48,138 nt of DNA from Escherichia phage PhiR63_2: the sequence record PV340574.1; one strand, given 5' to 3'. Below the pieces are notes generated by a model, which saw only the letters and a list, made by a program, of their open reading frames with translations, was not told the origin of the DNA and searched no databases. The translations under genes were made by a program, and so were the position numbers. Positions 7,570-8,947 of the stretch are shown here, one piece after another (position 1 is the stretch's first letter; each line of letters starts with the position of its first letter).

Positions 7570-7598
7570 CAAAGAAAACCCGGCGCTGAGGCCGGGTT
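7570..7598 (-). terminator. Rho-independent terminator ending the cI-cassette transcription unit
   Basis: Stem CCCGGC (7579-7584) / GCCGGG (7591-7596) followed on the minus strand by TTTTCTTTG, immediately after the stop of the 250-aa ORF (7602). Confidence 0.55.
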
Positions 7599-7601
7599 GT
7601 A

Positions 7602-8354
7602 TTATGCTGCAAGTCTCTTAACCCAAGTCTCTCTTTTGGAGAATGGTAGAACTTGGCTTGATTCATGGAAGAGTAAGGAGAGTTGTTGCATTTGATCACC
7701 AATTGCTTCGCTGTCTATAACAACAAATCTGTTGTTATACTCCTCACTTGAAGCTTTAAGATCAATTAGTTTCCCAAGCAATGAGTAAGCACTATTCCAG
7801 CTTCCTCCGTGTTTCACGCTTGATGTAAAAACGTATTTAGGTATGTCGGTTTTTATTGTTACAGGGACGGTAATTTGATGTCCACTCAAGCCATATACGT
7901 TTTCACGAAGAGAAAGTGCGTCTCTAAGCTCTGTGTGATATAGATAATCAATAACCATACTTTCAAACTTTTCAGCTTGAACTGGCTGATACCAGTCTAA
8001 CGACAAAGTTGATGCGAGTATACCAGCTCTAATTATGTTCGATGTAATCGCACCGACATCCTTTTCTGTTGCCCAAGCAATGATTTCTCCTCGAGCATTG
8101 AGTTCTGCGCCTTCTTTAAGCAGTAATTGTCGTATCTCATCAAGTCGTTTTTTGGTAAGCGAGATCCCTCTTGCCTCCATATTCATTAAGGCATCGCATC
8201 TGTCACTAACTAAATACCTACCATTGACTTCACGGATAAAGGCACCGACATGCTCTCCATCATCACAGTAAGTGAATGGACTGATAATTCTCAAGGTCTT
8301 GCCTATTGGATGGCATTCGAAACCTAGTTGTGAGATCACTGTTGAGCACATCAT
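7602..8354 (-). CDS. Unknown protein B of immunity-region cassette (250 aa)
   Basis: Intact ORF; start overlaps the stop of the upstream 185-aa ORF in ATGA (8351-8354); AT-rich; no motif or family I recognise; occupies the lambda rexB slot. Confidence 0.6.
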   Translation of the reverse strand: MMCSTVISQLGFECHPIGKTLRIISPFTYCDDGEHVGAFIREVNGRYLVSDRCDALMNMEARGISLTKKRLDEIRQLLLKEGAELNARGEIIAWATEKDVGAITSNIIRAGILASTLSLDWYQPVQAEKFESMVIDYLYHTELRDALSLRENVYGLSGHQITVPVTIKTDIPKYVFTSSVKHGGSWNSAYSLLGKLIDLKASSEEYNNRFVVIDSEAIGDQMQQLSLLFHESSQVLPFSKRETWVKRLAA

Positions 8355-8908
8355 ATTCCAAACCCCATTTGCCCCGACTCATCTTCAAGCGGTAAAGGTA
8401 TTCTCCCAGAGTAAGTTATGTTCAGATGTTTACAGAAGTAATTCCAATACCCTACCAGGTCATCTGGGTTTATGTCATCTTCGATTGGAAACGCTATTCT
8501 ATCACTATAGTATCCAGCTTCTTCATAGTATACATGGTAGTGAGCACCGTAAATGATATCTTGGTACTTCGGATGATCGACCTTGTAACTATTCGTGTGT
8601 TTGTCAAAGTGATAGGTATCTACCGCGAAAACCCTCTTGTTATGATAGAAAGCAATAATATTTATTTTAGGGTAAGAAATCGGGTCATCAGGTTCTGAAT
8701 CCTGATCTGGTTTCCATTTCAGTTCAAACTTTAGCCCTTGTATAGGTATACAATCCTCATCCAAGGGGATGATATGGGCTTGTAGCCACATATCAGAGCG
8801 ACTTGGTTTCTGTTTCCATTTAACGCCAGAAAAGTTAACTATTTTTTTACAATAAAGTACTTTATCAACTTCTACTTGGCTTGGCTGATAATCATCTATT
8901 TTTGCCAA
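8351..8908 (-). CDS. Unknown protein A of immunity-region cassette (185 aa)
   Basis: Intact ORF 40 bp downstream of the cI stop, same strand; Tyr/His/acidic-rich, no predicted TM segment; no recognised family; occupies the lambda rexA slot. Confidence 0.6.
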   Translation of the reverse strand: MAKIDDYQPSQVEVDKVLYCKKIVNFSGVKWKQKPSRSDMWLQAHIIPLDEDCIPIQGLKFELKWKPDQDSEPDDPISYPKINIIAFYHNKRVFAVDTYHFDKHTNSYKVDHPKYQDIIYGAHYHVYYEEAGYYSDRIAFPIEDDINPDDLVGYWNYFCKHLNITYSGRIPLPLEDESGQMGFGI

Positions 8909-8947
8909 TGTTTACCGCCCTGTAAATTGTAGATAAAAGTGGTTTCA

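Follow-up and report, generated by a model that had tools for sequence, protein, structure and literature searches.

What does a lambdoid prophage carry directly behind its repressor gene, and what might the two genes found at this place in Escherichia phage PhiR63_2 do? Prophage repressor operons are a known home of exclusion systems, but little has been charted of what natural lambdoid phages carry in the rex slot. We analyzed a stretch of 48,138 nucleotides (sequence record PV340574.1), called here the window, in which two overlapping genes, A and B, lie between cI and the immunity terminator; a previous sequence-only reading had proposed them as a candidate defense or exclusion system. We consider it probable, at roughly 60%, that this cassette encodes an anti-phage module of two cytoplasmic proteins, expressed in the lysogen, which follows the genomic logic of rexAB but not its mechanism.

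The lambdoid prophage carried by the window shares an identical immunity region with the Escherichia phages ev207, ev017 and PhiR57_1. Three successive ORFs of 285, 275 and 304 aa on the minus strand (43474-46069) encode, judging by their translations, what we take to be a metal ABC transporter of the sitABC type (permease, ATPase and periplasmic binding protein), thus the right end of the window is probably host chromosome. Another ORF of 256 aa (46756-47526, plus strand) is located in the lowest-GC stretch (~0.35); it had no Pfam match, and PADLOC returned only a negligible one (PDC-M13C, E 0.003).

The gene pair was found just as the sequence-only reading had it, in ORF sizes, strand, coordinates and ATGA overlap, and directly downstream of cI on the same strand (Table 1). 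The counterparts of this cI are labeled cI or LexA-family regulator in the annotations of the identical phages and of strain ATCC 25922. Residues 1-39 of A are conserved among homologues, indicating that its TTG start is real. The oL-like site and its oR copy place the cassette inside the immunity region, upstream of pL; in the Stx1 phage AP005153 operators are annotated at the equivalent places. The assignment to the rexA/rexB slot was therefore upheld, as the cassette lies between cI and oL and ends at the immunity terminator. The hairpin of this terminator has 8 bp, six of them G-C pairs, followed by TTCTTT (7598-7577). From the gene layout we infer that cI, A and B are co-transcribed in the lysogen, cI being the first gene of a presumed pRM/pRE transcript that would read on into the cassette.

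Table 1. Features of the cassette and its surroundings. Positions refer to the window, except in the last row, where they refer to three homologous loci.
Feature	Position	Strand	Remarks
oL-type operator, downstream of the terminator	7357-7375		15/17 bases as in the oR copy
Intrinsic terminator, t_imm equivalent	7567-7598	-	Hairpin and T-rich tail
Gene B, 250 aa (WP_000968518.1)	7602-8354	-	
A/B stop/start overlap, 4 nt	8351-8354	-	ATGA
Gene A, 185 aa (WP_001062368.1)	8351-8908	-	TTG start at 8908
cI-A spacer, 39 nt	8909-8947	-	From sequence
cI repressor gene (HTH_3 + Peptidase_S24)	8948-9649	-	Pfam E 1e-28 and 2e-10
oR-type operator, between cI and cro	9671-9689		
DUF3024 gene of Izhakiella and Providencia prophages	5044-5385 (L019); 5053-5394 (L021); 5052-5393 (L022)		

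The AT-richness reported for the cassette is real, its GC content of 0.40 against 0.498 for the window falling in the 2.8th percentile among windows of the same size, but the contrast is modest, since the adjoining immunity and early-left region itself has values of 0.42-0.45. A recognized exclusion gene, sieB, is found just past N (6295-6876, plus strand; Pfam SieB E 2.5e-22, phrog_1301), thus the prophage already holds one such function adjoining the candidate cassette.

The arrangement resembles that of lambda RexAB, also two genes 3' of cI inside the oR-oL immunity region that end at the immunity terminator, with presumed expression in the lysogen. The likeness does not extend to the proteins: neither A nor B is related in sequence to RexA or RexB, and no match of either to a Rex model or to any named system was obtained in PADLOC, Pfam or NCBIfam at E<=1. 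Moreover, RexB is a polytopic inner-membrane protein, whereas neither signal peptide nor membrane segment was detected in A or B, in line with the absence of TM helices noted earlier; the peak Kyte-Doolittle values over 19 residues were 0.45 for A and 1.19 for B versus 3.03 for SieB, with no hydrophobic segment in either protein. B has a nuclease fold instead (see below).

Homologues were found across Enterobacterales, Aeromonas and Thorsellia, with identities down to 47% for B and 37% for A. In all 16 contexts examined, from Escherichia to Pseudomonas-type phages, the order was repressor-A-B on one strand, the repressors being of unrelated types, and with few exceptions A and B overlapped by 4 nt. 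Among them are contexts in Aeromonas, Thorsellia, Yersinia, Pectobacterium, Izhakiella, two Providencia, Xenorhabdus and Pantoea, as well as a Rac-like prophage of Klebsiella, whose repressor is a 128-aa HTH protein. Three IMG/VR contigs, two of them high in GC, also display repressor-A-B, and in one IMG/VR contig A is ~22% identical. In the Pseudomonas D3-like phage VB_PaD_phPA-G (PP083311.1, L027) we detected an A-like ORF (3420/3480-4004), missing from the GenBank record, the end of which overlaps the annotated B-like CDS0029 (4001-4756) by 4 nt. Between this ORF and the CI-like repressor of the same phage there is a 216-aa gene with a weak match to PDC-S48.

When the window and 13 homologous loci were compared, A started with TTG or GTG in 11 of the 14 and the ATGA junction between A and B was kept in 13, which suggests low and stoichiometrically coupled expression; in the Pantoea locus (L024) the B ORF starts at 5992, upstream of the A stop, and the overlap is 13 nt. 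The A family is tiny, as an exhaustive HMMER search among 1.84 billion representatives gave 32 clusters at 50% identity. A peptide-pattern scan of genome contigs using strict patterns returned six loci, a viral-contig scan with P0113 gave no match, and neither did a contig look-up for P0074 or tblastn with B against plasmids. No defense-island context was found in the subfamily of the cassette, every context being a prophage.

A constant place next to the repressor, held in 16/16 contexts and behind unrelated repressor types, would be explained if the pair were an accessory regulator of lysogeny, modulating repressor stability, induction or the lysis-lysogeny decision. The closest relatives of the window argue against such a role. 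In phages 2G7b and Stx1 AP005153, cI, the operators and the N region are 93-99% identical to those of the window, and homology breaks at 7598/7599 and 8946/8950; between these points 2G7b holds an unrelated 283-aa ORF (2228-3079, L013) and AP005153 an unrelated 173-aa ORF, b63 (1991-2512, L014). Conversely, the Stx1a phage Stx1_121427 has the identical cassette but a different cI and a different N. Since the cargo is swapped behind one cI and the same cassette also serves another, it is neither needed for the immunity circuit nor specific to it; and no DNA-binding or protease-type domain was found by Pfam in A or B. We thus regard a regulatory function as very unlikely.

Compared in this way, these phages show, at the level of sequence, a swappable slot bounded by the stop codon of cI on one side and the top of the terminator hairpin on the other. 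The terminator that had been described after the pair, with its hairpin and T-rich tail, is indeed present; nevertheless, it goes with the conserved flank and not with the cassette, since homology resumes at 7598 in phages with other cargo. The cargo ORFs of 2G7b and AP005153 had no match in Pfam or PADLOC, and may represent further uncharacterized lysogen-expressed functions. A 113-aa gene with a DUF3024 domain lies between the repressor and A in the Izhakiella and Providencia prophages; it matches the PADLOC candidate PDC-S43 (E 1e-38), and would thus be a second defense candidate stacked in the slot. We view the A-B cassette as probable accessory cargo (a moron) of this cI-to-terminator slot of lambdoid prophages, transcribed together with the repressor.

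Within E. coli, the cassette was present in 250 of 5426 complete genomes (~4.6%), always chromosomal and at least 99% identical, the carriers including the reference strains ATCC 25922 and ATCC 11775; the ATCC 25922 proteins are the same two accessions listed for the window, WP_001062368.1 (A) and WP_000968518.1 (B). The ATCC 25922 prophage (NZ_CP158443.1) differs from the window by a frameshifted ISEc52 element of the IS3 family, inserted between ral and sieB (L012 1450-2619). Morons expressed in the lysogen are known, bor and lom among them, and extraintestinal E. coli strains (e.g. ATCC 25922, clone D i2) commonly carry the cassette, so that it could be read along these precedents as a moron that serves host fitness or virulence and has nothing to do with phages, for instance through a stress or metabolic function in the lysogen. 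Set against this, A and B are cytoplasmic, the hosts of the pair have very different lifestyles, from insect symbionts to those of Aeromonas and Pseudomonas phages, and two independent computational signals, PADLOC and DefensePredictor, favor defense; we give this explanation little credence.

The amino acid sequence of A is enriched in Asp, Tyr, Lys and His, in agreement with its earlier description as rich in Tyr, His and acidic residues. Its predicted structure (pLDDT 82, pTM 0.81) consists almost wholly of beta strands, apart from a single helix and a disordered tail, and has no convincing structural match and no solved or viral-predicted neighbor. Across members only 21-26% identical, residues K22, W31, R92, N106, H123, H125, F158 and P173 are invariant, and D97, H104, G121 and Q180 nearly so. 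D97, H104, N106, H123 and H125 form a His/Asp/Asn cluster, and the C-terminal tail P173...Q180 is conserved though disordered. To judge from this conservation pattern, the residues look like a metal-binding or catalytic centre accompanied by a conserved C-terminal peptide. With Pfam DUF6978 A scored 22.0 bits, below the gathering cut-off of 29.6; distant members reached 19.5-22.9 bits, only two of them touching DUF6978, both below threshold.

An LDED...ELK segment of A had been put forward as a degenerate PD-(D/E)xK motif. This proposal had to be dropped, because E62 and K64 vary in close homologues, and the restriction-endonuclease fold turned out to reside in the other protein, in the C-terminal domain of B.

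Residues 26-110 of B correspond to DUF1828 (33.5 bits, Pfam gathering cut-off 22). DUF1829 was not reported in B by hmmscan at E<=1; a published HHpred analysis of the identical protein WP_000968518.1 assigned residues 155-241 to DUF1829, of the PD-(D/E)xK clan, with 98.8% probability. The AlphaFold model (pLDDT 79.7) displays two domains: an N-terminal one (~1-116) in which DUF1828 takes a YbjN/T3SS-chaperone-like fold, and a C-terminal one (~129-250) for which the fold search indicated a restriction-endonuclease fold, agreeing with DUF1829. When profiles of both families were searched against all PDB chains, no match rose above noise (E 0.2-0.9). In B homologues down to 27% identity the conserved polar residues are C3, C14, D32 and D51 in the N-terminal domain and S157, H159 and D198 in the C-terminal domain, the latter also including an invariant GxSGH159 motif at the start of the second core strand.

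The canonical D...(D/E)xK residues are absent from B. On a mapping made on predicted secondary structure, and not on superposed coordinates, the invariant H159 stands where the first Asp would be expected, and K173 has no conserved acidic residue before it; in the Pseudomonas-type homologues this Lys is itself not retained. Since the canonical residues are missing, B may not be a nuclease; the model is compatible either with a non-canonical nuclease (His-based, or permuted as in NgoMIV) or with a nuclease-fold binding module.

The cassette is already flagged as a defense candidate by two published computational screens, the PADLOC PDC set and DefensePredictor. In PADLOC-DB the only matches of the pair were to the two components of PDC-M24, a defense candidate and not a named system: B matched PDC-M24B over nearly its whole length (E 4.7e-10, 37.5 bits, residues 2-249 on positions 4-254 of the 256 of the model), and A gave a weak, partial match to PDC-M24A (E 4.8e-4, 18 bits, residues 104-163 only). 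The distant B homologues from Pseudomonas-type phages also match PDC-M24B. PDCs are candidate cassettes that were encountered inside loci of BREX, DISARM or type I RM systems (bioRxiv 10.1101/2024.01.29.577857). We found no mention of PDC-M24 in the published literature, and no study of the cassette in the literature on DUF6978/DUF1828, PhiR57 or immunity-region defense.

As for DefensePredictor, both exact proteins appear in its Tables S5 and S10 as predicted novel defense genes, with log-odds of 4.9/5.4 for A and 5.6/6.3 for B, and its ECOR table puts them in one transcription unit (PMC13092281). Neither is among the 94 units tested in that study (PMC13092281). Of the tested units with a maximum log-odds of 4-8, 12/27 were validated, by our own count from its Table S6 (PMC13092281). 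The sequence-only reading that neither protein was recognizable therefore stands with respect to Rex, to which they are unrelated, but not otherwise, as B is a DUF1828 protein, both weakly match PDC-M24 and both figure in the DefensePredictor lists. Taken together, all the computationally checkable signs point to a lysogen-expressed defense or exclusion function.

Comparison with known systems helps to locate the pair. As in PDC-M24, there are two adjacent, co-directional genes in the same order, B matching its component and A resembling its own weakly and in part; PDC-M24, however, was defined from copies in BREX, DISARM and type I RM loci, while the present clade has been found solely in the repressor operons of prophages. 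The low PDC-M24 scores (18-45 bits) indicate that the cassette is a prophage-borne sister clade and not a core member. Can2/Card1, with which Shedu is grouped as sensor-plus-PD-(D/E)xK effectors, differ from B in general design, as the N-terminal domain of B is YbjN/chaperone-like and not CARF, its nuclease fold lacks conserved catalytic Asp/Glu/Lys, and a second obligatory protein is present here.

DUF1829 was named by the DefensePredictor paper as newly implicated in defense (PMC13092281), and DS-6B of the HipAD/DS-6 system, validated in that work, has a DUF1829 restriction-endonuclease-fold domain such as HHpred assigned to B. DS-6B, however, combines DUF1829 with DUF3037 and acts alongside a HipA-like kinase, whereas B would be a DUF1828-DUF1829 fusion and its partner is A, a protein without recognized fold. 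With regard to position, BstA and DS-34 are likewise defense genes adjoining a prophage repressor and expressed in the lysogen (PMC8585504; Table S6); DS-34, a 'CI + hypothetical' unit, is listed in Table S6 as validated (PMC13092281). Neither is homologous to A or B, and BstA is a single protein.

HipAD/DS-6 is itself TA-like, and the occurrence of DUF1829 in it, together with the nuclease fold of this partner and the weak start codon of a small, translationally coupled, cytoplasmic gene pair, would also suit an addiction module, which would stabilize the prophage through the death of cells in which it, or expression of the repressor operon, has been lost, defense being a by-product. However, none of Pfam, NCBIfam and PADLOC gave a toxin or antitoxin match for A or B, which contain no DNA-binding domain of the antitoxin type and exceed typical type II pairs in size; isogenic phages manage without the cassette, and the tblastn search with B found no plasmid copies though addiction modules are common on plasmids. 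A TA-like function is in our opinion quite unlikely.

Returning to an anti-phage module, A and B would form a complex whose ratio is fixed by translational coupling and whose level is presumably kept low by the weak start codon of A. The conserved tail of A may dock on the chaperone-like domain of B. A superinfecting phage would perturb this complex, after which either the nuclease-fold domain in B or the metal-type centre in A would act on nucleic acid and the incoming phage would be blocked, probably at the cost of the cell. The roles of sensor and executor could be assigned to either protein.

A bolder version of the anti-phage module, which we think unlikely, is that the pair represents a mechanistically new defense core in which A is a new metal-dependent enzyme or sensor built around the D97/H104/N106/H123/H125 centre. 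A would then make or modify a small molecule or a nucleic-acid end upon infection, and the YbjN/chaperone-like domain of B would read this signal and switch on a His-based site in its nuclease-fold domain, the whole system being firmly tied to the repressor operons of temperate phages, from Escherichia to Pseudomonas.

The cassette keeps its position behind unrelated repressors across temperate phages of gamma-proteobacteria and possibly of beta-proteobacteria. If validated, it would turn a DUF pair into a named defense family, and would provide a first function for the DUF1828-DUF1829 architecture and for the fold of A. It would also offer near-isogenic natural phages, with the same cI and other cargo, for studying how slot cargo affects competition between phages, and would have a practical bearing on phage susceptibility testing in ATCC 25922.
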